A DNA stretch of 32,000 nt from Opitutales bacterium (lineage in GTDB: Bacteria; Verrucomicrobiota; Verrucomicrobiia; Opitutales; PNEW01), in NCBI GenBank assembly GCA_965219535.1, contig CBDCNV010000001.1, forward strand, positions 720,001-752,000. The letters are read 5' to 3'. The notes below the pieces were generated by a model. It had not been told where the DNA came from. It did not search any database and saw nothing but the letters and a program-made list of their open reading frames with translations. How positions within the stretch are numbered: the stretch's first letter is position 1; every line of letters starts with the position of its first letter. Shown one piece after another: positions 13,435 to 29,687 of this stretch. Both the position numbers and the translations under genes were made by a program.

Positions 13435-14802
13435 ATGATTAAACGAACGAGTAAGAGCATTTACGGGGTTGTGCGGGTCCTGGTTCTATTATGTTTTATT
13501 GCCGGCATCGCCGAGGCGATGGTGGATCTGGTAACACTGCCCAACCGGGAGAGTGTGCAGTTGACGATCTATAACTCCGCGGACTTGACCCTGGCGCAGG
13601 AAAAAAGAGGCCTGACCTTATTGGAGGGGATGAATGAGCTGCAGTTTTCCTGGGCGAATACACTTATCGATCCTACGAGTTTAGAAATGCTCCCACAAAA
13701 GAATGCCGGATCGATTGATATCTTTGATCTGACCTTTCCGCCGCGGGTGAGAAACCTTGGGTTGTGGAATATCAAAAGCGGAATGAGCGGGAAGGTACCG
13801 GTAGAGATCAGCTATTTAACGAGCGGACTTTCGTGGAGAGCATTTTATTTAGGTACCCTGACTACGGATGAGAAGGAGATGAGACTCAAGGGGTACGTGC
13901 GGGTGACAAATAACAGTGGAGAGGACTACGAGAACGCGCAAGTGAGGTTAATCGTAGGGAAGGTGCACCTTATCGACCAGATAGCTCAGTTGGCACAGCA
14001 GCAGTATCCTTACGGTCGACCGGGTTATGAAATTTACGGTGGAGCAGTTGCGCCTCAAAAGGCTTCAGGAAATAAAATGATGCGAATGATGAATGCCGCG
14101 GCAATGGACGCCTCTGTAGCCATGGAACAGGCCCCAAAGCAAGTCGTTAAAGAGGGTTTGAGTGAGTATTTTCTCTACACCATAGAGGGGACGGAAACGA
14201 TCCCCAATGGCTGGTCAAAACGACTGCCGAGCTTTGATACGGCAGGTGTGCCGGTGGTCAATCTCTACAAGTACGAAGAGGAGCGGTATGGCAGGGGAGT
14301 CTTGCGGTTTTTAAGTTTCAAGAATGATGAAGAACATAAATTGGGCGAGACGCCCATCCCGGGAGGGATGATCAAGGTCTTCCGCTCGGTGAATAAAGAA
14401 AAGAACCTGAGCTATGAGGGACAGTCAAATTTCAAATACATCCCGGTAGAAGAAGATGTGGAATTAAACCTCGGAGCGGTGCAGACCGTGGTCGTGGAGC
14501 CGACCCTCATGGAGTATCACACGGAGAACTACCGCTTTGACCGTTGGGAGAACATCAGCGGCTGGGATGAAGTGAGAGATTTTAAAGTAGAGATCAAGAA
14601 TACAAGGGAGATACCTATAAAAGTGGAAATACAGAGAAACTTTAATACCACCTATTGGAAGATAAAGAACAGTGGAGAGTTTGGGAAGTATGAGAAATTG
14701 GATGTCGACACCGTGAAATATACCCTGGAACTGGGGCCGAAGTCACAGAAGACATTGAATTATGTCCTGACAACCTTTCACGGCACGCGAGCAGAAATTT
14801 AA
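13435..14802 (+). CDS. Secreted/periplasmic DUF4140-DUF4139 (MuiA-like, TIGR02231-like) protein, paralogue A with a Met-rich central cassette
   Basis: 455-aa ORF with a signal peptide ending AEA. The N-terminal block (VQLTIYNSADLTLAQEKRGLTLLEGMNELQFSWANTLIDPTSLEM) fits the DUF4140 pattern. The C-terminal block (YFLYTIEG..TIPNGWSKRL..., LRFLSFKNDE..LGETPIPGGMIKVF..., ELNLGAVQTVVV, EIKNTREIPIKVEIQ...YTLELGPKSQKTLNYVL) fits DUF4139. The family call is from memory of the consensus, not a search. Confidence 0.7.
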   Translation: MIKRTSKSIYGVVRVLVLLCFIAGIAEAMVDLVTLPNRESVQLTIYNSADLTLAQEKRGLTLLEGMNELQFSWANTLIDPTSLEMLPQKNAGSIDIFDLTFPPRVRNLGLWNIKSGMSGKVPVEISYLTSGLSWRAFYLGTLTTDEKEMRLKGYVRVTNNSGEDYENAQVRLIVGKVHLIDQIAQLAQQQYPYGRPGYEIYGGAVAPQKASGNKMMRMMNAAAMDASVAMEQAPKQVVKEGLSEYFLYTIEGTETIPNGWSKRLPSFDTAGVPVVNLYKYEEERYGRGVLRFLSFKNDEEHKLGETPIPGGMIKVFRSVNKEKNLSYEGQSNFKYIPVEEDVELNLGAVQTVVVEPTLMEYHTENYRFDRWENISGWDEVRDFKVEIKNTREIPIKVEIQRNFNTTYWKIKNSGEFGKYEKLDVDTVKYTLELGPKSQKTLNYVLTTFHGTRAEI

Positions 14803-14828: not shown

Positions 14829-15965
14829 ATGAAAACAATCAAGCGGTTATATAGTATTATCACACTAACAGGAATCATCTCCGTTTTTGCGGCAACCGCG
14901 GAAGCGAGAATAAAATTAGTCGCATTGCCGGAGCGCGCAACGACGATAATCAGACTCGATAATCCTCAGTTTACACTTATTGAGGAGGAGCGGGTTTTAA
15001 CCCTGCAGCGCGGAATCAACAAGGTGGATTTTTCCTGGAATGGAGTGAGTATCGACCCTGATTCCATCCGCCTTGCGATATTAACCCATGCCAAGGATGT
15101 AACCTTACTGAATGTCAGTTATCCACCTAATGAAGCCGCCCTGGTATGGGAAATCAGCAGCGCGGGTGCCTGGGAAGAAAAAGTAAGAGTGAGTTATTTG
15201 CTTTCGAATATCGACCGACTAATTACCTATAAAGCCCTCGCGGATAAGCAGGAATCTGAAGTCGATTTTAAAAGCCATCTTATCCTTCGTAATTTCTCCG
15301 GTGAGGATTTTGAACACGCGCGTGTGCTCCTGGACTATGGACAGGCTTTCGAACGGGGAATAAATCATGAAGAGACAAAACAGCTCTTATTTTTATCGGC
15401 CGGCAAGGTGCCGATACAAAAAGTCTGGAAGTGGGATGCCGCGATCCAGGCTTGGGATCCGGAAAAAATAAATCAGAATGTAGGGATTCCCGTCAGCTAT
15501 AAAATTACTAATGACGATGAAAGTCGTTTGGGGGACAATGCTCTTTGGGGTGGAAAAGTAAGGGTATACCAGGAAGATGGTCACGGCAGTACTATTTTGC
15601 TCGGTGAAGATGCTGTCGGTCTGACGCCCGTTGGCGAGGATATGGAAGTTTATATCGGTGATAGTCGGGATATAGTCGTTACGCAGCGCAAAATGTTAGA
15701 CCGTAAAATTAATATACGCTATAATTCGAATAGACATATCGTCCTTTATGATAATGAAGAGCAGATTACGACGAAGATCGAAAACTTCAAGGATTCGGAA
15801 GCCTTATTGACTTTAGTCCAGCACATTCCGGGGGAATGGGAGATGAAAAGGTCGACTTTAAAATATTCTCTTAAGAATGCGAATACCCTCGAGTACGAAA
15901 TTGCTTTAGCTCCCAATAGTGAAAAAGAGCTTAAGTTTCACTATGTTCGTAAGAATATCCGCTGA
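14829..15965 (+). CDS. Secreted/periplasmic DUF4139-like protein, divergent paralogue B lacking the central cassette
   Basis: 378-aa ORF with a signal peptide also ending AEA and a GGGAG ribosome-binding site. It aligns by eye with A: IKLVALPERA../VDLVTLPNRE.., FSWNGVSIDPDSIRL/FSWANTLIDPTSLEM, RNFSGEDFEHARVLL/TNNSGEDYENAQVRL, and an ALAPNSEKELKFHYV/ELGPKSQKTLNYVL tail. It starts 26 nt after A and ends 24 nt before A'. Confidence 0.7.
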   Translation: MKTIKRLYSIITLTGIISVFAATAEARIKLVALPERATTIIRLDNPQFTLIEEERVLTLQRGINKVDFSWNGVSIDPDSIRLAILTHAKDVTLLNVSYPPNEAALVWEISSAGAWEEKVRVSYLLSNIDRLITYKALADKQESEVDFKSHLILRNFSGEDFEHARVLLDYGQAFERGINHEETKQLLFLSAGKVPIQKVWKWDAAIQAWDPEKINQNVGIPVSYKITNDDESRLGDNALWGGKVRVYQEDGHGSTILLGEDAVGLTPVGEDMEVYIGDSRDIVVTQRKMLDRKINIRYNSNRHIVLYDNEEQITTKIENFKDSEALLTLVQHIPGEWEMKRSTLKYSLKNANTLEYEIALAPNSEKELKFHYVRKNIR

Positions 15966-15989: not shown

Positions 15990-17330
15990 ATGCGATCAAT
16001 AATAACGACAGGTTTGTGTATTGCCATGATCGTGGCATCTGCCGAAGCGAAGGTGGATCTGGTAACGCTACCCAATAGGGAGAGTGTGCAGTTGACAATC
16101 TACAACTCCGCGGATCTGACCCTGGCGCGGGAAAAGAGAGGGCTGACCTTAATGGAGGGGATGAACGAGCTTCAGTTTTCCTGGGCGAACACACTTATTG
16201 ATCCCACAAGTCTGGAAATGATCCCCCAAAAGAATGCCGGGTCGATAGATATCTTTGATCTGACTTTTCCTCCGCGCGTGAGGAACCTGGGGCTGTGGAA
16301 TATTAAAAGCGGGACGAGCGGAAAGGTACCGGTAGAGATCAGCTATTTAACAAGCGGACTTTCGTGGAGAGCATTTTATTTAGGAACTCTCTCTACGGAC
16401 GAAAAGGAGATGAGACTGAAAGGGTATGTGCGCGTGACGAACAACAGCGGAGAGGACTATGAAAACGCGCAGGTGAGGTTGATCGTGGGGAAGGTGCACC
16501 TTATTGACCAGATAGCCCAGTTGGCGCAGCAGCAGTACCCTTACGGTAGACCGGGTTACGGAAGGTATCCGGAATCTTCATCAGAATTAAGAAAGAAAGA
16601 AGTTTATGAGATGAAAGTAGGCTTGATGGATCTTGAAGAAGATTACAATGGGCGAAGAGATCAGAAAGATATCGTTAAAGAGGGCTTGAGTGAGTATTTT
16701 CTCTACACCATAGAGGGGACGGAAACGATCCCCAATGGCTGGTCAAAACGACTGCCGAGCTTTGATACGGCAGGTGTGCCGGTGGTCAATCTCTACAAGT
16801 ACGAAGAGGAGCGGTATGGCAGGGGAGTCTTACGGTTTTTAAGTTTCAAGAATGACGAAGAACATAAATTGGGCGAGACGCCTATTCCGGGAGGGATGAT
16901 CAAGGTCTTCCGCTCGGTGAATAAAGAAAAGAACCTGAGCTATGAGGGGCAGTCGAATTTCAAATACATCCCGGTAGAAGAAGATGTGGAATTAAACCTC
17001 GGAGCGGTGCAGACCGTGGTCGTGGAGCCGACGCTGATGGAGTATCACACGGAGAACTACCGCTTTGACCGCTGGGAGAACATCAGCGGTTGGGATGAAG
17101 TGAGAGATTTTAAAATCGAAATCAAAAATACGCGGGAGATACCGGTAAAGGTGGAAATCCAGAGAAACTTTAACACCACCTATTGGAAGATAAAGAATAG
17201 TGGAGAGTTTGGGAAGTATGAGAAAGTGGATGTCGACACCGTGAAATATACCCTGGAATTGGGACCGAAGTCACAGAAGACATTGAACTATATCCTGACA
17301 ACCTTTCACGGCACGAGAGCAGAATATTAA
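15990..17330 (+). CDS. Secreted/periplasmic DUF4140-DUF4139 (MuiA-like) protein, paralogue A' with a charged central cassette
   Basis: 446-aa ORF. The mature sequence is nearly identical to A, with about 12 substitutions outside the cassette. The signal peptide is unrelated (MRSIITTGLCIAMIVASAEA), as is the 37-aa central cassette (GRYPESSSELRKKEVYEMKVGLMDLEEDYNGRRDQKD). Confidence 0.7.
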   Translation: MRSIITTGLCIAMIVASAEAKVDLVTLPNRESVQLTIYNSADLTLAREKRGLTLMEGMNELQFSWANTLIDPTSLEMIPQKNAGSIDIFDLTFPPRVRNLGLWNIKSGTSGKVPVEISYLTSGLSWRAFYLGTLSTDEKEMRLKGYVRVTNNSGEDYENAQVRLIVGKVHLIDQIAQLAQQQYPYGRPGYGRYPESSSELRKKEVYEMKVGLMDLEEDYNGRRDQKDIVKEGLSEYFLYTIEGTETIPNGWSKRLPSFDTAGVPVVNLYKYEEERYGRGVLRFLSFKNDEEHKLGETPIPGGMIKVFRSVNKEKNLSYEGQSNFKYIPVEEDVELNLGAVQTVVVEPTLMEYHTENYRFDRWENISGWDEVRDFKIEIKNTREIPVKVEIQRNFNTTYWKIKNSGEFGKYEKVDVDTVKYTLELGPKSQKTLNYILTTFHGTRAEY

Positions 17331-17649
17331 AAAGAGAGAGTTTTCGCACTTACCTGTGTTCATTTGATAGAGGTTTACTCTGTATATACTAATTAAATCT
17401 CATGCCCGCGTAAAGTAATCTGATCTTATCTGCGAGGTCACCCCTTTGTCATTGCGAGGATCCAGCACCTGCTGGAGACGAAACAATCCAGGCAAACGTC
17501 TATTGAGTAAAATTAATCGATAGATTTCAAAATGTTCAATAGATGTATAGTCACGGTAATAACAAAGCATAACGTGCTGTTGTTAATCTTAAAATAGGCC
17601 ACGACCGTGGAATCTCTGCTATTTAAGGTAAGTCCTCGCGAGTCATTAT

Positions 17650-18942
17650 TTAATGTAAGAACATCCCGGCGACACAGGCGGTCATGAGACAGGCCACCAT
17701 TCCTCCTATCATCGCTCGCAGGGCGAGGGTGGCGAGGTTACTGCGTTGATTGGGTGCCAGCACCGCGATACCACCGATCTGAATACCGATTGAACCAAAA
17801 TTAGCAAAACCGCATAAGGCATAGGTGGCAATCATCACCGTTCTTTCATTCGTCAGTATTTCTCCATCAACCATCTTATCGAGTGAGATGAAAGCGATAA
17901 ATTCATTGAGCACCATTTTTTCACCGAGCAGTTGGCCAATCAGCAGCAGATTTCCCGACTCAATGCCGATGATCCATGCCACGGGGGCAAATAATAATCC
18001 GAAAATAAACTGCAGGTTTAATCCTTCAAACCTGCCATCCGTGAACTCGATGATTACAGTATTGAGACCGGTCCAGGAACCGATCCAGTTTAGCGTGATG
18101 TAATTAATCATTGCGATCATCGCGATGAATACGAGGAGAATGGCCCCGACATTTAACGCCAGCTTGAGGCCCTGTGTCGTCCCACTCGCCGCCGCGTCAA
18201 AGAGATTGCAGCCGATTTTTTCTCTGCTCACCTTTAATTCGTGATCAATGGCTTCCGTTTCGGGTAAAAGGAGCTTGGCGCAGAGTATCGCCGCCGGCGC
18301 CGAGAGAATGGATGCGGTGAGTAAATGTTTTCCAATCATCACCTGTCGTTGCGGATCGTCACCGCCAAGAATGGATATATAAGCTACAAATACTCCTCCC
18401 GCGATCGTCGCCATTCCCCCGGTCATCAGGCAGAGGATCTCGGAGCGCGTCATATCTTTTAAATAGGGCTTCACCATCAGTGGCGCTTCCGTCTGTCCGA
18501 TAAATATATTCGCTGCCGCGGCGAAACTTTCCGCTCCCGATAAATGCATCGTACGCTGCATGATCCAGGCAAACCCGTAAACGATTTTCTGAAGCAGACC
18601 CAGGTAATAGAGCACCGAGGTAAAAGCGGAAATGAATATTATGGATGGGAGCACTTTGAAGGCAATGACCGCTTCGTATGAAGTGTCCGATGCTAATTTA
18701 CCAAAAATAAACCGGGACCCTTCATTGGAAAACTCAAGCAGTCGGATAAAAAAAATCGAAACTCCCTCGAGAGCGCTTTCGATCGGCGGGACCCACAATA
18801 CCAGTGCAGCGAGTATTATTTGAAGCAGTACACCCGCCGGAACCAACCGCCAGTTGATCGCCTTCTTTTTTTCACTCAACAAGCAGCAGAACCCTATCAA
18901 CAGGACCAAACCCAACAGACTGCGAAATACATGCCATCCCAT
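17650..18942 (-). CDS. nupC: Concentrative nucleoside transporter, NupC/CNT family
   Basis: 430-aa polytopic ORF with an N-terminus typical of NupC (FRSLLGLVLLIGFCCLLSEKKKAINWRLV). It also shows the motifs SEILCLMTGGMATIAGGV and ALCGFANFGSIGIQIGGI. Confidence 0.88.
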   Translation of the reverse strand: MGWHVFRSLLGLVLLIGFCCLLSEKKKAINWRLVPAGVLLQIILAALVLWVPPIESALEGVSIFFIRLLEFSNEGSRFIFGKLASDTSYEAVIAFKVLPSIIFISAFTSVLYYLGLLQKIVYGFAWIMQRTMHLSGAESFAAAANIFIGQTEAPLMVKPYLKDMTRSEILCLMTGGMATIAGGVFVAYISILGGDDPQRQVMIGKHLLTASILSAPAAILCAKLLLPETEAIDHELKVSREKIGCNLFDAAASGTTQGLKLALNVGAILLVFIAMIAMINYITLNWIGSWTGLNTVIIEFTDGRFEGLNLQFIFGLLFAPVAWIIGIESGNLLLIGQLLGEKMVLNEFIAFISLDKMVDGEILTNERTVMIATYALCGFANFGSIGIQIGGIAVLAPNQRSNLATLALRAMIGGMVACLMTACVAGMFLH

Positions 18943-23262: not shown

Positions 23263-23367
23263 ATAATAAATCAATTATATTCCGTTTGTCGCCGAGAGAT
23301 AACAATTGGCGAGATTAGATAATCGTTCTGAATTGTTCGCTAGCTCAATTCCTATTTGTTAATTGTC

Positions 23368-25014
23368 ATGAGGTGTTTCCAATCATGGCTGCTCGGCAAT
23401 GTTATTACTTTTTGTGGTATTCAATTTTTGTACGCACAAATCACGCCGCCTTATCTCACAGACTTTGAAGGTAGTGAAGGTTATAGTCTTGGTGATTTAA
23501 ATGCACAAAATGGATGGGTTCGTAACCAGGGTCAGGCGATAATTAATTCAGGAACTGCTTTTTCAGGGGACAATTTCGTGGCCTTGGTTGCGAATAACCC
23601 ATTTTCGCAAATCAGCATTTTGTTTAATAGCATGGGGGGTGATGAGATTAACTTCGTTGACTTTTATCTTAAGCCGAAAGCGGGTGATATTTTAAATATT
23701 GAAGAGCTTGTCGATTCAGAGGGTGCACTCATTAGCTTTATCAAAGCAGGTTCAGAAGGTGAAGTTTACGTATTCAATGGTGATGGTGCAGGTAATGGTG
23801 AATGGCTCACGACAAATACAAACAACAGTCTGACAATCGATGATATATCACAAAATTGGCTACACTTGACTGTAAGGCATGAATTTAATGAGAAGATTTG
23901 GGATCTTTATGTAGATGGCACGATTCAGGCAATTAACCTTGGACTCATTGATGATGCAGCCACCTATTTAAATGAATTCGTCCTCATGGGGGATCTAATA
24001 GCGGACGTAAATTTTGATTTGTTTTCTCTAACTACTACAAACCCGTTATTCATTGATGCGGATAATGACGGAATCGATGACGCTTATGAAAATATTTACG
24101 GATTAAATACCTCGCTCAACGACAGAGATCTTGATCCCGATGGAGATGGGTTATCAAATATTGAAGAGTTTTTGTATAGCACCTTTGCTGATAATCCGGA
24201 TTCGGACGAAGATAGTGTAAGTGATGGCGATGAGATCCATCTGAATAGAGATCCTCTTCAGTTTGATAGTGTAATAATACAAGCTGACTCAGACTTAGAT
24301 GGACTAGTGACTGATGATAGCCATTCGTCAGACATAACTTCACAGGGTGTCGTCACAAATACGGGAAACGCTGTTATTCATGCGGTCGTTAGTGGTGAAG
24401 AAGGTGAGCTCAAATCTGTAGTCATGAGCGGTAAGGGAACAGTTGAAATTGAAGTGATTAATGAACCAGCTAGTACAATAGCTTTCTACTCATTTGTATT
24501 TACGCCTTCCGTGAGCGAGAATCCTGCGGATCATACGATGCTCAATGTAGCAGGGGCGGTAACAGCATATCCGTGGTACGATAATTTGGATAATGTCACC
24601 TCAGGGCATATAAAAGCTAAGAGTGGTGTTAGCGGTCTCGATTGGATTAGCTCTGGTATATTCTATGGTCTCAAGGATTACGGGGAATCAAAAGTTCCAT
24701 TGCACTTTATGTTGCGACTGGATGAAGAACAGGGAGTTTGGGATCTGTTTATCCAGGATAAACTTTGGTTAGCGGATATTCATTACATTCCTGGTGACGA
24801 TAAAATAATTATCACTTCAGGATCTGAATACCCGACGACTCTGAGAGAGTTAATCATCACTGAAAGTAATCCCCTTTTTGAAGACATCAATAAAGATGGG
24901 CTTCCCGACAGTTTCGAGATCGAACAGGGGTATAGTCCAACCGCCAATAACCGTCATGCTCTCATGCCAGGGGGAACGATGACATTACTGGATTACTACC
25001 TGAACTCTATGTAA
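23368..25014 (+). CDS. Secreted protein with two LamG/ConA-like modules and thrombospondin-type-3-like acidic Ca-binding repeats
   Basis: The ATG at 23368 gives a signal peptide (MRCFQSWLLGNVITFCGIQFLYA/QI); the track ORF begins at a TTG at 23356. Asp-rich repeats are present: DADNDGIDDAYE, DRDLDPDGDGLSNIEE, DNPDSDEDSVSDGDE. There is an internal duplication marked by ...WDLYVDG...TTNPLFIDADNDGIDD and ...WDLFIQD...ESNPLFEDINKDGLPD. The LamG assignment is an impression only. Confidence 0.65.
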   Translation: MRCFQSWLLGNVITFCGIQFLYAQITPPYLTDFEGSEGYSLGDLNAQNGWVRNQGQAIINSGTAFSGDNFVALVANNPFSQISILFNSMGGDEINFVDFYLKPKAGDILNIEELVDSEGALISFIKAGSEGEVYVFNGDGAGNGEWLTTNTNNSLTIDDISQNWLHLTVRHEFNEKIWDLYVDGTIQAINLGLIDDAATYLNEFVLMGDLIADVNFDLFSLTTTNPLFIDADNDGIDDAYENIYGLNTSLNDRDLDPDGDGLSNIEEFLYSTFADNPDSDEDSVSDGDEIHLNRDPLQFDSVIIQADSDLDGLVTDDSHSSDITSQGVVTNTGNAVIHAVVSGEEGELKSVVMSGKGTVEIEVINEPASTIAFYSFVFTPSVSENPADHTMLNVAGAVTAYPWYDNLDNVTSGHIKAKSGVSGLDWISSGIFYGLKDYGESKVPLHFMLRLDEEQGVWDLFIQDKLWLADIHYIPGDDKIIITSGSEYPTTLRELIITESNPLFEDINKDGLPDSFEIEQGYSPTANNRHALMPGGTMTLLDYYLNSM

Positions 25015-25032
25015 CCGTTGCTTATTTTCACA

Positions 25033-28000
25033 ATGAACTGCTTCATAAGATCGATAATATCCACGTTTTCAAAACATTGGGATCATTGGAGAATACCCTG
25101 TATTTCAATATTAATTGCGTTTACAGGATTAATACAGGGATTAAATGCGGCAAACCCTAGTGCCAGTCTGTCGGTCAGCAAGAGTAGACCTAAACGTGGT
25201 GAAACAATTACACTTTCCGGAAATTATAGGGATAGTGATGGAAATCTAAAAGCGGCTACTATCCGTAATCTGGGATCCGGAAATAAATCAGGCTCTATGA
25301 GTGCTTTTCCCAGCATTGGTGCTGCTGGTGAAAGATTATCAGGAAGTAGAGATTCAATCTCACGAAGATTTACCATCCCCAGAGGAGCGAAACTCGGTAC
25401 TTACACTTTTCGCACTGAAGTAGTAGATAAAACATCAGGTTCTGCTATTAGATGGAGAACCGTTAGTGTCCAAAATAATAAGCCTACGGTCAGTATATCC
25501 GTTTCCAAAACCACGATTACTGAAGGAGGATCGGTTACAGCAACTGCATCGGCACGTGATTCAGACGGATCGATTAAACAGGTATCTTTTTTTAGGGATG
25601 GATTATTACACAAGACAGATAAAAGTGCTCCCTACAATTATACTTACCGACCTGCAGGTGTAGGAAAACACAGGTTTCAGGCCTCTGCAGTGGATAATGA
25701 GGGACAGTCTAGAAATTCTAATGTTGTTTATGTTAATGTGAATCCAAAGCCCAATGCAAATCCTGTTGCTGCACTATCTGCACCCAGTAATCCCATGCGG
25801 GGAGAAACTATTTCCCTCATTGGAAGTTACACAGATATAGACGGTAATCTCTCCTCTGCCACCATTCGCGATCTAGGATCGGGACAAAATTCTGGAAATA
25901 GAGGAACATTCCCAAGTATCGGATCTGCCGGAGAATCTATTTCAGGTGGATCAGATTCCATTCAACGGAATTTTACCATCCCAGTAGAAATCCCACTTGG
26001 AATATATACTTTTCGGACTGAAGTTGTGGATACAAAATCAGGCTCAGATATTAAATGGAATTCTACTAACGTCATAAATAATAAACCTAGTGTGAGTTTA
26101 TCCCTTTCAAAGACAACGATCACAGAGGGTGGTTCAGTAACCGCAAGAGCGACAGCAAGTGACATAGATGGGGCGATTAATAGGGTGTCATTTTTCCGTG
26201 ATAACTTTTTACAGGCTGTCGATACAACGGCTCCATTTAATTATACTTATACTCCTCAGGGAACGGGCTCACGAAAATTTCAAGCTTCTGCTTTTGACAA
26301 TGATGAAGGGAGTTCTACTTCCAATATTGTAACCCTTATAGTAAACCCACGGCCAAACCTACCGCCCGTAGCTTCTCTTTCTGTGGACAATTTAACCCCT
26401 GAAGCAGGGGAACAAATTACAATAACGGGAAGCTATTCGGATGCAGATGGCAATCTCCAAGCTGCTACCATACGTGATCTAGGTTCAGGGGATCTTTCCG
26501 GAGACATAAGTGATTTTCCTAGTATCGGTGCTGCAGGCGAGTCGGTAACCGGTAGTAGTGATTCTATACAACGCAATTTTACTATCCCAGTTGGAACACC
26601 AAACGGACCTTATATATTCAGAACCGAAGTAACAGATTCCGAAGGAGCTAGTGATATTGTATGGACGATGGTTAACGTCAGCACTATTCCGCCCGTGATT
26701 ACTTTAAGTATTCCTTCAACAGCTTTTGAAGGAAGTACTGTTCCCGTGGAAATTACAGCTACTGGGTCCAGCTGGAATATTGAAGATATTATAATATACC
26801 ACAACGGGAACAATGTTGGAAACTTCTCTAATCTCCCTGCGCAATACAGTTACACTAACGCAGCACTCGGAACACATAGTTTTCAAGCTACTGTAATTAA
26901 GAAATTCAATAAGAGCGTTTCCTCAAACACCGAAAATTTAACCGTCACTGCGGCACCGCTTGTCAGTATATCGAGCTCATCGCCAGCAACAACCCTGAAT
27001 AACGCTGTAATTTTGAATGTTGATGTTAGTAAAGGTTCTGTTGACAAAGTTAAACTCTATCGTGGGGGGAACCTTGTTAGCATAGACACCTCTTTACCCT
27101 ATTCATTTACGGACACACCTTTTACTGTCGGCATTTACGATTATTTTGCTCGGGTTGTTTTTACCGATGGAAGTATAGTCGAATCTAGCTCGATAAATAT
27201 CGAAGTTGTCGACAATGAAAATGAAATTTGGTCGGACTTCAATAATGATGGCTATTTAGACTTGGAACTTGCGGTTATGGAAAAGCCGATTCTATTGGGA
27301 ACTTCAGGTTCGCTCTTAATAAACGGTGTTGAACTTAGAATAGACGAAGTTCCATTAGATGTATTTGACCCTAATACAGGAAATATAGGAATAGAAATTG
27401 TTCCTCTTACAACTGTTGGTTTTGATATACAGCAGGGTTACACTTACAGAGTGCAATACCAGGATGTATTAGATCCAATCTCTCCCTGGATAGATTGGAG
27501 CCCTGCTTTACCCCAAGCAGGTGGATCTGAAAATAGGATTCTATGGTGTGACTATGAAAACTTATGGGTTAACTGGAGCAATATACCAGATTTTTTCCGA
27601 GCTATCAGATTAGGTGGACCTTCTTCTGTTATCGGTCAACCGTTATCAGCGGACATTAACGGCGATGGCAAAGATGAAATTATTAACGAGGTAACTGCAG
27701 GAGCATTATCAATAACTGGTGATCTCGTAGATATCATTGTTTCACTACCGATAAGTATAACTGGTCATCAATATCGACTGCAAATATGTGTCGGTGATGA
27801 AGCATGGGCTGATGTTATTGGAGTAAGTCCTGTAATAGGGAACGGTGGAACAGTATCCATATCCACCGAAATTCAATCAGACATACTGGCAATCTCGAAG
27901 TTTCGATTTGTTAATTACGATGTTGCCGTTCCAAAAGTTGAATTCGACGACCCGGAAAAAGTGAATAAGAAAAACATTGCAACAGTCCTCCCTTGGCCAG

Positions 28001-28791
28001 TAGCCAAATCGGCATCCCTAATTTGGGATCCATCGCAAACAGTCGATTTGGCTTATTATCTAACTCCAGACTCCGATGAATCTAATATAGACTGGAAAGT
28101 AAATGACAATGTTGTAGGATCCAGTGTTTATAATTACGGATTTGAACCCTTAAGTGATGAAATTAATGAATTTAATATCGAAGCGGTACATCTAAATGAT
28201 GATAAAATATTTGATAGAATGATATTAGTAATTATTCCACGATCAACACCTACAAAGTATAATAATTGGGTGAATGATAATGTGGATATTAGTTGGATCA
28301 ATGATCTACCTGCAGTGTATTCTACTCTCGCTACAAATAGTGTTGATCCAGAACCGGATATTACTGTTTGTAATCCACAAAGATGGCAATCGGTTGATTC
28401 TCTTGATAAAGAATATCATCCCTTTGCCTCTTACGAGATGCGTTCCGAGAATATTAACGGTCATGGTCACCAAGCCTGTTATAATATAAATGGAAACTTG
28501 ATTGTTGATGGGGTATCTGCAGGAACAGCTGACTTTAGTCATCCTGATAATTTTATATTATCGCCCACCCACTTAGAAGCAGATGTTAGACCATTTATAT
28601 GGGCAGCGCAACTGGACGGAAATCCCGTTCAAGGTACACCTGGACCCACTTCAGCACCAAATGATCTTTCTCATCCTATAATGTACCAAGGTCACCCAGG
28701 TTCAAAATTGGATACTTATTTAGCGCTTCGGCCCATCTACGCGGATAACCCCGTTATTGAAGGAAATTGTGTGCCAGTTCCAATTGATTGA
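25033..28791 (+). CDS. Large secreted/surface protein with tandem Ig-like modules and an uncharacterised Cys/His-containing C-terminal module
   Basis: The ATG at 25033 lies 18 nt after the previous stop; the track ORF starts at a TTG at 25018. A signal-like segment (ISILIAFTGLIQGLNA/ANPS) is present. Three bi-domain units of about 200 aa follow, plus a fourth Ig-like domain of the (V)xF(F/Y)xDG...D..APY.Y.Y....G.H.F.A.A.DN type (Big_7-like). Also present are DINGDGKDEIINE (FG-GAP/Ca-loop-like) and a C-terminal region with YHPFASYEMRSE, GHGHQACYNING and RPFIWAAQLDG. Confidence 0.75.
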   Translation: MNCFIRSIISTFSKHWDHWRIPCISILIAFTGLIQGLNAANPSASLSVSKSRPKRGETITLSGNYRDSDGNLKAATIRNLGSGNKSGSMSAFPSIGAAGERLSGSRDSISRRFTIPRGAKLGTYTFRTEVVDKTSGSAIRWRTVSVQNNKPTVSISVSKTTITEGGSVTATASARDSDGSIKQVSFFRDGLLHKTDKSAPYNYTYRPAGVGKHRFQASAVDNEGQSRNSNVVYVNVNPKPNANPVAALSAPSNPMRGETISLIGSYTDIDGNLSSATIRDLGSGQNSGNRGTFPSIGSAGESISGGSDSIQRNFTIPVEIPLGIYTFRTEVVDTKSGSDIKWNSTNVINNKPSVSLSLSKTTITEGGSVTARATASDIDGAINRVSFFRDNFLQAVDTTAPFNYTYTPQGTGSRKFQASAFDNDEGSSTSNIVTLIVNPRPNLPPVASLSVDNLTPEAGEQITITGSYSDADGNLQAATIRDLGSGDLSGDISDFPSIGAAGESVTGSSDSIQRNFTIPVGTPNGPYIFRTEVTDSEGASDIVWTMVNVSTIPPVITLSIPSTAFEGSTVPVEITATGSSWNIEDIIIYHNGNNVGNFSNLPAQYSYTNAALGTHSFQATVIKKFNKSVSSNTENLTVTAAPLVSISSSSPATTLNNAVILNVDVSKGSVDKVKLYRGGNLVSIDTSLPYSFTDTPFTVGIYDYFARVVFTDGSIVESSSINIEVVDNENEIWSDFNNDGYLDLELAVMEKPILLGTSGSLLINGVELRIDEVPLDVFDPNTGNIGIEIVPLTTVGFDIQQGYTYRVQYQDVLDPISPWIDWSPALPQAGGSENRILWCDYENLWVNWSNIPDFFRAIRLGGPSSVIGQPLSADINGDGKDEIINEVTAGALSITGDLVDIIVSLPISITGHQYRLQICVGDEAWADVIGVSPVIGNGGTVSISTEIQSDILAISKFRFVNYDVAVPKVEFDDPEKVNKKNIATVLPWPVAKSASLIWDPSQTVDLAYYLTPDSDESNIDWKVNDNVVGSSVYNYGFEPLSDEINEFNIEAVHLNDDKIFDRMILVIIPRSTPTKYNNWVNDNVDISWINDLPAVYSTLATNSVDPEPDITVCNPQRWQSVDSLDKEYHPFASYEMRSENINGHGHQACYNINGNLIVDGVSAGTADFSHPDNFILSPTHLEADVRPFIWAAQLDGNPVQGTPGPTSAPNDLSHPIMYQGHPGSKLDTYLALRPIYADNPVIEGNCVPVPID
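25150..26958 (+). repeat. Three tandem coding repeats of about 600 nt (25150-25755, 25756-26358, 26359-26958)
   Basis: Each unit begins (A/L)-N/P-P-x-A-x-LS. Each contains RGETI(T/S)L.G.Y.D.DGNL..ATIR(N/D)LGSG...FPSIG(A/S)AGE...DSI.R.FTIP...G.YTFRTEVVD, followed by NNKP(T/S)VS(I/L)S.SKTTITEGGSVTA.A.A.D.DG.I..VSFFRD. Units 1 and 2 are clearly closer to each other than to unit 3. The similarity is at protein level; the DNA has diverged. Confidence 0.85.
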
Positions 28792-28814
28792 GGCTTTTAA
28801 AATGATCTATTCGT

Positions 28815-29687
28815 ATGAAAATCAGTAGAAAAATCTCTTTTTTTTATGGAGTAGGCGCAGTCATTATTCTCGTCGTAACTGCCTATCTTATATTTTGGGT
28901 TTATAAAAAAGAGGATGGGTATCACGTTAATAATATAATGGCCAAAACTGAATCAATTCCTAACGAAGAATCACGAAATGTTATAAGTGATATTAACCTG
29001 ATGAATCCCATCTATGTAAAAATTGCTAATACAGATTTTCCCGTTGTTGTAGAAGATGGCAACTATTCAGAGGAATTAATAAATACAGCTCTTGATGATA
29101 TCAATTTGGTCTACTCTCAATTAAAGGAATACTACATTGGATATAGTACCAATAAAAAGAGCTTTCAAATAAACGGTAATACAATTCAAACTAATGTTTC
29201 TTTTAACAGAGGAAATCAGGATCTATATGGGCCTCGAATATTTTCAGAATCTAACTTTGGCTATCTACTAGAAGTTAATGGTAATCATCAGCTTATTCTT
29301 TCTAATTCATTAATGAATGAATATCAAAAAGCATTGCTATTTAAAGAATCGAATATAGAGGAAATTATAAAACTCGATAGCTTTATTCAATATATAAACC
29401 AGCTTGAAAATATAGGTAGTTTAAGCGACGTCGAAGTAAAGGATCTCTTTTATTTTATAACTCCTCACTTAACTTCAATTAAAATAGAGAAATTAAGAGA
29501 AAACGCAGAAATGCTTGTACACTACAAAATTCGAGAGCCTAGTATTTTAGAATTTTATTATTTGAATCCAAATGATGATAATAAGATACTAGTAAGTGAA
29601 ACCCTATTTTTAAATCGGGAGAGTAACGAAGTAATAAGTGAAACCAATTTAGGGTATGTAGACTCGAAATGGCAACTTATATATTGA
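28815..29687 (+). CDS. Membrane-anchored hypothetical protein (ORFan), very AT-rich
   Basis: 290-aa ORF starting 23 nt after the giant gene's stop. It has one N-terminal TM helix (ISFFYGVGAVIILVVTAYLIFWVY). The composition is Asn/Ile/Lys/Glu-rich with no motif I recognise. One 60-nt line counted by hand (29281-29340) has 15 G+C. Confidence 0.6.
   Translation: MKISRKISFFYGVGAVIILVVTAYLIFWVYKKEDGYHVNNIMAKTESIPNEESRNVISDINLMNPIYVKIANTDFPVVVEDGNYSEELINTALDDINLVYSQLKEYYIGYSTNKKSFQINGNTIQTNVSFNRGNQDLYGPRIFSESNFGYLLEVNGNHQLILSNSLMNEYQKALLFKESNIEEIIKLDSFIQYINQLENIGSLSDVEVKDLFYFITPHLTSIKIEKLRENAEMLVHYKIREPSILEFYYLNPNDDNKILVSETLFLNRESNEVISETNLGYVDSKWQLIY

Follow-up and report, generated by a model that had tools for sequence, protein, structure and literature searches.

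Two neighbouring genes, A and A', encode exported proteins of the family DUF4139 in a 32,000-nucleotide (nt) stretch of the genome of an Opitutales bacterium (Verrucomicrobiota; GenBank assembly GCA_965219535.1, contig CBDCNV010000001.1, positions 720,001 to 752,000 of the forward strand; hereafter the window). The two proteins are ~97% identical once their signal peptides and one internal segment, the linker (38 codons in A, 37 in A'), are excluded. The linkers themselves show no detectable similarity to each other. We propose that A and A' are old, conserved tandem paralogues whose cores are homogenised by gene conversion, with each copy keeping its own, faster-evolving linker. We give this explanation, taken as a whole, a probability of about 0.7. 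Its evolutionary part is the firmer one and we regard it as quite probable; its functional part, on what the linkers do, is tentative.

A and A' are separated by a third gene, B. The three genes are co-oriented, with intergenic gaps of 26 and 24 nt. The features discussed below are the following, with positions counted from the start of the window:

13435 to 14802, + strand: gene A, exported DUF4139 protein of 455 amino acids (aa), from the open reading frame (ORF) and Pfam PF13598 at 46.7 bits
13435 to 13518, + strand: signal peptide of A, 28 aa, ending in AEA, paralogue-specific, from alignments
13522 to 14028, + strand: N-terminal core of A, orthology kept, no recent conversion in this genome
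14029 to 14142, + strand: linker of A, residues 199-236, of the family-typical Met/Ala-rich type
14074 to 14118, + strand: predicted helix inside the linker of A, residues 214-228, KMMRMMNAAAMDASV, from DSSP on the AlphaFold2 (AF2) model, at a predicted local distance difference test score (pLDDT) of about 51-66
14146 to 14565, + strand: gene-conversion tract, A side, 420 nt, from nt differences with A'
14829 to 15965, + strand: gene B, 378-aa paralogue lacking the whole insertion
15990 to 17330, + strand: gene A', exported DUF4139 protein of 446 aa, from the ORF and Pfam PF13598 at 49.1 bits
15990 to 16049, + strand: signal peptide of A', 20 aa, ending in AEA, from alignments
16560 to 16670, + strand: linker of A', of a clade-specific charged type
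16674 to 17093, + strand: gene-conversion tract, A' side and recipient, from nt differences and the orthologue comparison

The linker of A is EIYGGAVAPQKASGNKMMRMMNAAAMDASVAMEQAPKQ, with six Met within 17 residues, and that of A' is GRYPESSSELRKKEVYEMKVGLMDLEEDYNGRRDQKD; both are in frame. Alignment of the two protein segments gave z=0.17 and p=0.41 (global) and p=0.50 (local), and alignment of their nucleotides p=0.14 (global) and p>0.9 (local). Residue 3 is Tyr in both linkers (YEIY in A, YGRY in A') and is conserved across the clade. An earlier note on this DNA, made from the sequence alone, had described these sharp, in-frame segments, and we found its coordinates and peptides to be exact. 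It was also right that the signal peptides are replaced (28 and 20 residues of different sequence) and that the two proteins are a common scaffold in which essentially only the insert differs. We could not retain a direct homology of the two linkers, which is undetectable pairwise and, at the profile level, strong for A and weak for A' (see below). We likewise found no support for compensating frameshifts as the way in which one linker arose from its counterpart (alternative-frame p about 0.02, uncorrected, in four tests).

The near-identity of the proteins hides a large asymmetry, and the two flanks of the linker are not equivalent at the DNA level. The N-terminal cores of A and A' share 88.4% of their nucleotides, with 53 synonymous and 5 non-synonymous differences in 169 codons, whereas the first 420 nt downstream of the linker are 97.4% identical. 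This corresponds to 59 differences in the 507 nt before the linker and 11 in the 420 nt after it (Fisher p=7.6e-8). The synonymous divergence (dS) is 0.73 in the N-terminal core and 0.20 in the C-terminal core, the latter with 5 non-synonymous differences in 218 codons. The direction of transfer can be read from the syntenic locus of a related genome (L001). The tract of A' that follows the linker is closer to the A orthologue of that genome (95.0%) than to its own orthologue there (90.5%), which indicates conversion from A into A'. The N-terminal core of A, on the other hand, is nearer to its orthologue in L001 (94.2%) than to A'.

Other genomes show the same process at different stages. In L081, another syntenic relative, the N-terminal cores of A and A' are 98.6% identical in nucleotides and the three C-terminal cores 97-98%, compared with 86-90% between the cores of this genome and their orthologues in the window and in L001. 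Despite these homogenised cores, the linkers of L081 are still of the A, A' and A'' types, A'' being a third copy. In a locus from Phycisphaerae (L034), identity of the C-terminal cores is 95.8% within the genome but drops to about 83% between genomes, and the type of linker tracks the position of the gene. A further locus (L016) has the same excess of within-genome over between-genome core identity. Ten of 42 within-genome pairs have cores that are at least 90% identical; their linkers have a median identity of 0.21 (maximum 0.36). This is no better, in any of the ten, than random pairs of linkers (median 0.22, 95th percentile 0.37). Identity within genomes thus exceeds identity between orthologues, in discrete tracts, as is characteristic of concertedly evolving tandem paralogues. 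As a rule in this family, cores evolve in concert and the linker escapes.

The Campylobacter flaA/flaB and Neisseria opa genes are known cases of concerted evolution of paralogues with an escaping variable region. There, as here, the conserved parts are more alike between paralogues of one genome than between orthologues, conversion leaves a mosaic of tracts, and each copy is recognisable by a variable segment. The present linker differs in being short (~38 residues), of fixed length and layout, and mostly under purifying selection. Antigenic or phase variation is without support here, and the protein family is uncharacterised.

The sharp in-frame edges of the linkers can be explained in the same terms, because extreme purifying selection acts on the cores and conversion tracts have limits. 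Hence, they most probably mark the limits of constraint and of conversion tracts rather than the scars of a cassette swap. The earlier note had favoured a discrete swap. We do not follow it on this point, since the window holds no donor copy, both linker types are old, and selection and conversion account for the edges. Distinct linkers have survived conversion on both flanks and were never homogenised in the genomes examined, which suggests that selection keeps them.

The age of the linker types was apparent from orthologues. The syntenic relatives L001, L002 (OY829953.1, a metagenome-assembled genome (MAG) labelled Opitutales) and L081 have the order A-B-A'-A'', with recognisable A-, A'- and A''-type linkers. 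The A-type signal peptide is kept in L001, L081 and a fourth relative, L080. The A' linker is conserved in all four genomes (z=16.7 against the protein of L080). What A-type linkers conserve is their Met-bearing half (G-x-K-[LM]-M-R-x-M-N...M-D-A-x-x-A-M-E-x-A-P-K-Q). Met216, Met219, Met224 and Met230 are conserved in A orthologues, whereas Met215 and Met218 are replaced by Leu, Ser or Val. The four conserved residues (offsets +3, +8 and +14) share one face of the predicted helix in the model. By these comparisons, the A and A' linker types appear to predate the split from three related genomes, and A and A' to be old tandem paralogues.

We estimated selection from the ratio of non-synonymous to synonymous divergence (dN/dS, Nei-Gojobori). 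The cores gave 0.01-0.08 in the clade of the window and 0.02-0.19 in other lineages. Orthologous linkers gave 0.38-0.43 for A and 0.11-0.59 for A', and those of other lineages 0.17-0.75 in 12 of 13 pairs. The linkers evolved 5-10 times faster than the cores.

The number of A-type copies at this locus varies from one to three among close relatives. The window lacks the third copy, A'', which is present in L001, L002 and L081 (window 17331-17650 compared with L001:13998-15713 and L002:10002-11342). It also lacks a gene for a membrane protein of 114-116 aa that L001 and L080 have. At the syntenic position of L080 (L080:7001-8365) there is a lone DUF4139 gene, with a long signal peptide of the A type and a linker of the A'/A'' type, and B is absent. 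This is either a crossover deletion between cores or the ancestral state. In L081 (L081:7001-8362), a stop after codon 383 splits the A orthologue into ORFs of 383 and 69 aa; at a contig coverage of about 3x, the split may stem from the assembly and need not mean a pseudogene.

The stretch between YPYGRPG and PKEIKKEGLSEY varied in sequence in all relatives compared. Across 122 proteins its length was 33-42 residues (median 36). Relative to the rest of the proteins, linkers are enriched in Ala (4.2-fold), Met (3.9-fold, 6.3% vs 1.6%) and Pro (2.9-fold). Cys is absent from them, and His occurs only 12 times in the 122 sequences. They also share a positional layout, with Pro-rich ends and a basic centre (28-33% Lys+Arg) followed by a part with ~10% Met and 22-28% Ala. 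Amphipathicity was above that of shuffled controls in 79% of the linkers (mean z=0.76). The earlier note was therefore right to suspect a hotspot of diversity at this position, as the sequence differs in every family member compared. It had named an unconstrained linker of random length and sequence as an outcome that would speak against its reading. The hypervariable sequence agrees with that description everywhere; the tightly limited length and the conservation of sequence among orthologues do not.

The two linkers of the window occupy different places in this range. We built a linker hidden Markov model (HMM) from 110 distant members, leaving out the clade of the window. The A linker matched it with 13.8 bits (z=5.7), a score reached by none of 200 shuffles, whereas the matches of A' (3.7 bits, z=2.7) and A'' (0.4 bits) were weak. 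The Met fraction of the A linker is at the 97th percentile of the family. The A' linker has the family maximum in charged fraction (0.49) and ranks at the 1st percentile in Ala+Pro fraction. Judging from profile and composition, the A linker is a family-typical one at the Met-rich end of the range, and the A' linker a compositional outlier. Pairwise similarity of the A linker to the linkers of first-position A proteins of Kiritimatiellales and Omnitrophota was marginal (p 0.02-0.22), and we make no claim of orthology of linker types at that depth.

The Pfam scores of A and A' are above the gathering cut-off of PF13598 (31.8 bits). B scores below it (23.4 bits), yet aligns to A over its full length with 29% identity and a gap over A residues about 176-236. 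The scores for NCBIfam TIGR02231, the MuiA family (A 42.9, A' 36.7 and B 21.1 bits), fall short of its cut-off of 112.6 bits. By these scores, the three proteins are distant relatives inside the DUF4139 superfamily and outside the MuiA subfamily. All three carry Sec-type signal peptides ending in AEA. More than 8000 relatives at ~70% identity to A were among the matches listed, mostly labelled Planctomycetota, Phycisphaerae and Sedimentisphaerales, and family identity across phyla is about 65-70%. Also among the matches listed, B is about 65-72% identical to most of 120 relatives from other lineages. Hence, A, B and A' belong to a very large exported DUF4139 beta-sandwich family of the PVC (Planctomycetes-Verrucomicrobia) group. 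In the literature we found only incidental mentions of DUF4139. Near-identical members also occur in MAGs that carry the labels Pirellulales, Thorarchaeota, Desulfatiglandales, Aegiribacteria and Omnitrophota, some of which are probably due to errors of binning or taxonomy, or else to horizontal transfer.

We modelled A with AF2 from a diverse alignment of 129 sequences, including B and the anti-sigma subfamilies described below. The mean pLDDT was 84.5, compared with just 49.9 for a shallow alignment of 65 sequences that were all ~70% identical. The predicted protein is all-beta, with three sandwich-like blocks. Its sole low-confidence part is residues 175-245, an excursion between beta blocks 1 and 2 that comprises a conserved helix (181-187), the invariant YPYGRPG, the variable linker (predicted helix 214-228) and the first part of the invariant strand KEGLSEYF. 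The insertion thus lies between beta-sandwich domains, is lacking in B and is modelled with low confidence, in keeping with the inter-domain position first assigned to it. Just before the linker, residues 176-198 of A (13960-14028; the helix DQIAQLA and YPYGRPG) are nearly invariant in the family, yet have a pLDDT of about 52-62. They are absent from B, and the model is compatible with a segment that would fold only upon binding of a partner.

A sequence search of the PDB matched no solved structure. The best Foldseek matches to the model, nearly full-length, were to Ost1/ribophorin I, a luminal beta-sandwich subunit of the eukaryotic oligosaccharyltransferase (E 2.6e-6 to 1.9e-4, probability 0.97-1.0). 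However, TM-scores were merely 0.14-0.19 and sequence identity 8-10%. We take this similarity of a predicted model as a resemblance in fold only and make no functional inference from it.

In 47 related loci, the cluster is headed by a longer A-like protein. In it, an N-terminal zf-HC2 anti-sigma motif (HxxxCxxC in 42 of the 47) is followed by a transmembrane helix, a spacer and an A-like body that has a linker of its own. Of the 43 loci whose sequence reaches far enough upstream, 39 have a gene for an extracytoplasmic function (ECF) sigma factor immediately upstream of this gene. In the canonical arrangement, the sigma and anti-sigma genes precede B and one to three A genes, in that order; in Pontiella the order is anti-sigma, A, B. 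Examples of the anti-sigma protein with a full A-like ectodomain are L011:2352-4771, L028:2166-4615 and L064:4054-5976, and there are 39 further loci. We found no description of such a protein in the literature searched.

One DUF4139 protein has been placed in a comparable pathway. In Pseudomonas aeruginosa, MuiA is one target of the ECF sigma factor SbrI, which the anti-sigma factor SbrR controls (PMC10418997). This envelope-stress module resembles the related loci in that it links an exported DUF4139 protein genetically to an ECF sigma/anti-sigma pair. It differs in that the PVC anti-sigma protein itself bears an A-like DUF4139 ectodomain and is accompanied by 2-4 further paralogues, in that the window has no sigma or anti-sigma gene, and in that A scores far below the MuiA family cut-off.

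These elements can be combined as follows. Very strong purifying selection holds the cores, and gene conversion repeatedly homogenises them within each genome. The ~38-residue insertion between the first two beta domains evolves faster at fixed length and layout, and each paralogue retains its own linker type across species. Selection may be what keeps the linkers distinct. The linker could be a flexible surface arm, and through its short amphipathic helix each paralogue would have a contact or position of its own. Together with B, the paralogues might form a hetero-oligomeric envelope assembly. In most lineages this assembly would include the A-like ectodomain of the anti-sigma protein, which could couple the state of the assembly to the ECF sigma factor.

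A more specific proposal is that selection keeps the linker as an address tag. With a Met lining in A and an acidic character in A', the helix would set the partner or the lattice position of otherwise interchangeable subunits, and the envelope assembly that they form would be PVC-wide. An anti-sigma protein with a decoy A-like domain and its own linker would, in most lineages, read the assembly state. We regard this proposal as doubtful. In a still stronger version, the Met stripe of A might bind Cu(I) or a hydrophobic ligand, which would make A a sensor subunit.

Several observations weigh against our explanation, or at least against parts of it. The non-synonymous divergence (dN) between the A and A' linkers (0.76) is ~3 times that predicted from a dN/dS of about 0.3 and the dS of the N-terminal core. 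Change may have been rapid early on, or a linker may really have been replaced, although the excess would also fit if the duplication predates the age implied by the partly homogenised flanks. Heterology by itself can block conversion tracts, in which case selection is unnecessary for the linkers to stay distinct. With a dN/dS of about 1, the A'' linker is close to neutral, and the lone gene of L080 shows that an A-type linker and B can be missing from the locus. Domain scans revealed no sigma or anti-sigma gene in the window, nor in the syntenic L001, L080 and L081. Finally, the linker helix is a low-confidence part of the AF2 model, and oligomerisation and the contacts of the linker are things that we purely infer.

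A true exchange of modules would be an alternative to divergence in place. One paralogue would have taken its linker from a different family member, in another cluster or genome, by crossovers in the cores. In L080, one gene joins a signal peptide of the A type to a linker of the A'/A'' type, which suggests that re-association through recombination within cores can occur; this is the chief argument for an exchange. The A linker resembles those of distant lineages by profile, whereas the A' linker is clade-specific, and linker dN exceeds what the dS of the flank predicts. Yet, this excess is equally explained by conversion resetting the divergence of the flanks, and in pairwise comparisons the A linker is only marginally similar to those of distant lineages (p 0.02-0.2). 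Both linker types are also fixed by now in four related genomes, and no donor was found in the window. Searches of the 32 kb with both linkers (blastn-short and tblastn) returned only the linkers themselves, and no reverse transcriptase was found among the window ORFs scanned. Silent donor cassettes of the pilE/pilS type, or a template of the diversity-generating retroelement (DGR) type, were discarded, as a second copy of either linker is absent from the window. We consider module exchange unlikely.

The linker could also be a functionless, disordered spacer, with A and A' differing by neutral drift. Its hypervariability in every lineage, its low pLDDT, the near-neutral A'' linker and the lack of similarity between the A and A' linkers are all consistent with this. 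Drift alone fits poorly with a dN/dS below 1 in most orthologue comparisons, with the narrow range of lengths, with the conserved positional pattern of Pro, basic, Met and Ala residues, and with an amphipathicity that mostly exceeds that of shuffled controls. Distinct types have, moreover, survived conversion on both flanks. A mere spacer is therefore improbable.

We think it quite unlikely that the linker is a surface epitope under diversifying selection by phages or predators, as in the central region of flagellin. A hypervariable, presumably exposed segment between conserved cores, present in several tandem copies (one to three A-type genes among relatives), would suit such a role, and a few pairs have dN/dS values of 0.75-1.2. 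However, most orthologue comparisons give values of 0.1-0.4, and the fixed length and positional composition favour a structural role.

The least probable alternative, and a very unlikely one, is that the Met-rich A linker binds Cu(I)/Ag(I), as the earlier note had suggested, or senses oxidants. The run of Met residues, with MxM and MxxM spacings, the four Met conserved on one face of the predicted helix, and the high rank of A in Met fraction all speak for it. In these respects (local Met run, spacings, predicted helix, exported protein) A is like the Met-rich inserts of CueO, CopA/PcoA, CusF and PcoC. Unlike them, A has no copper-protein domain (Pfam gives DUF4139 alone in A and A', and neither a copper-oxidase nor a CusF or CopC domain), there are hardly any His partners and copper genes are not nearby, since domain scans of the 32 kb window revealed no copper or silver genes. 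Enrichment in Met is common to the whole Ala/Met/Pro-rich linker family, in which Cys is missing and His very rare, and two of the six Met are replaceable. A hydrophobic Ala/Met face of the helix is a simpler alternative.

The rest of the window gave little further context. According to the domain scan, the neighbours of the cluster include a response regulator, an RraA-like protein, a metallophosphoesterase, a nucleoside transporter, CBS-domain proteins, a pyrroloquinoline quinone (PQQ) dehydrogenase and a TonB-dependent receptor. Several large genes at 23356-29687 are scarcely annotated. ORFs of 552 and 290 aa have no Pfam match, and between them lies a gene for a 1257-aa protein with Big_7/Ig-like repeats. 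Scans for promoters, terminators and Rfam families gave nothing informative.

The mosaic of A and A' is best explained by known evolutionary processes acting in an uncharacterised protein family. An eye-catching pattern is thereby accounted for without a new mechanism, and the case calls for caution before local Met richness is equated with copper binding. It also points to a family of exported proteins in Planctomycetota, Kiritimatiellota and related phyla that is very large, extremely conserved and as yet uncharacterised. The linker is the only paralogue-specific part that survives repeated conversion, which makes it the obvious site at which to probe the specificity of the subunits.

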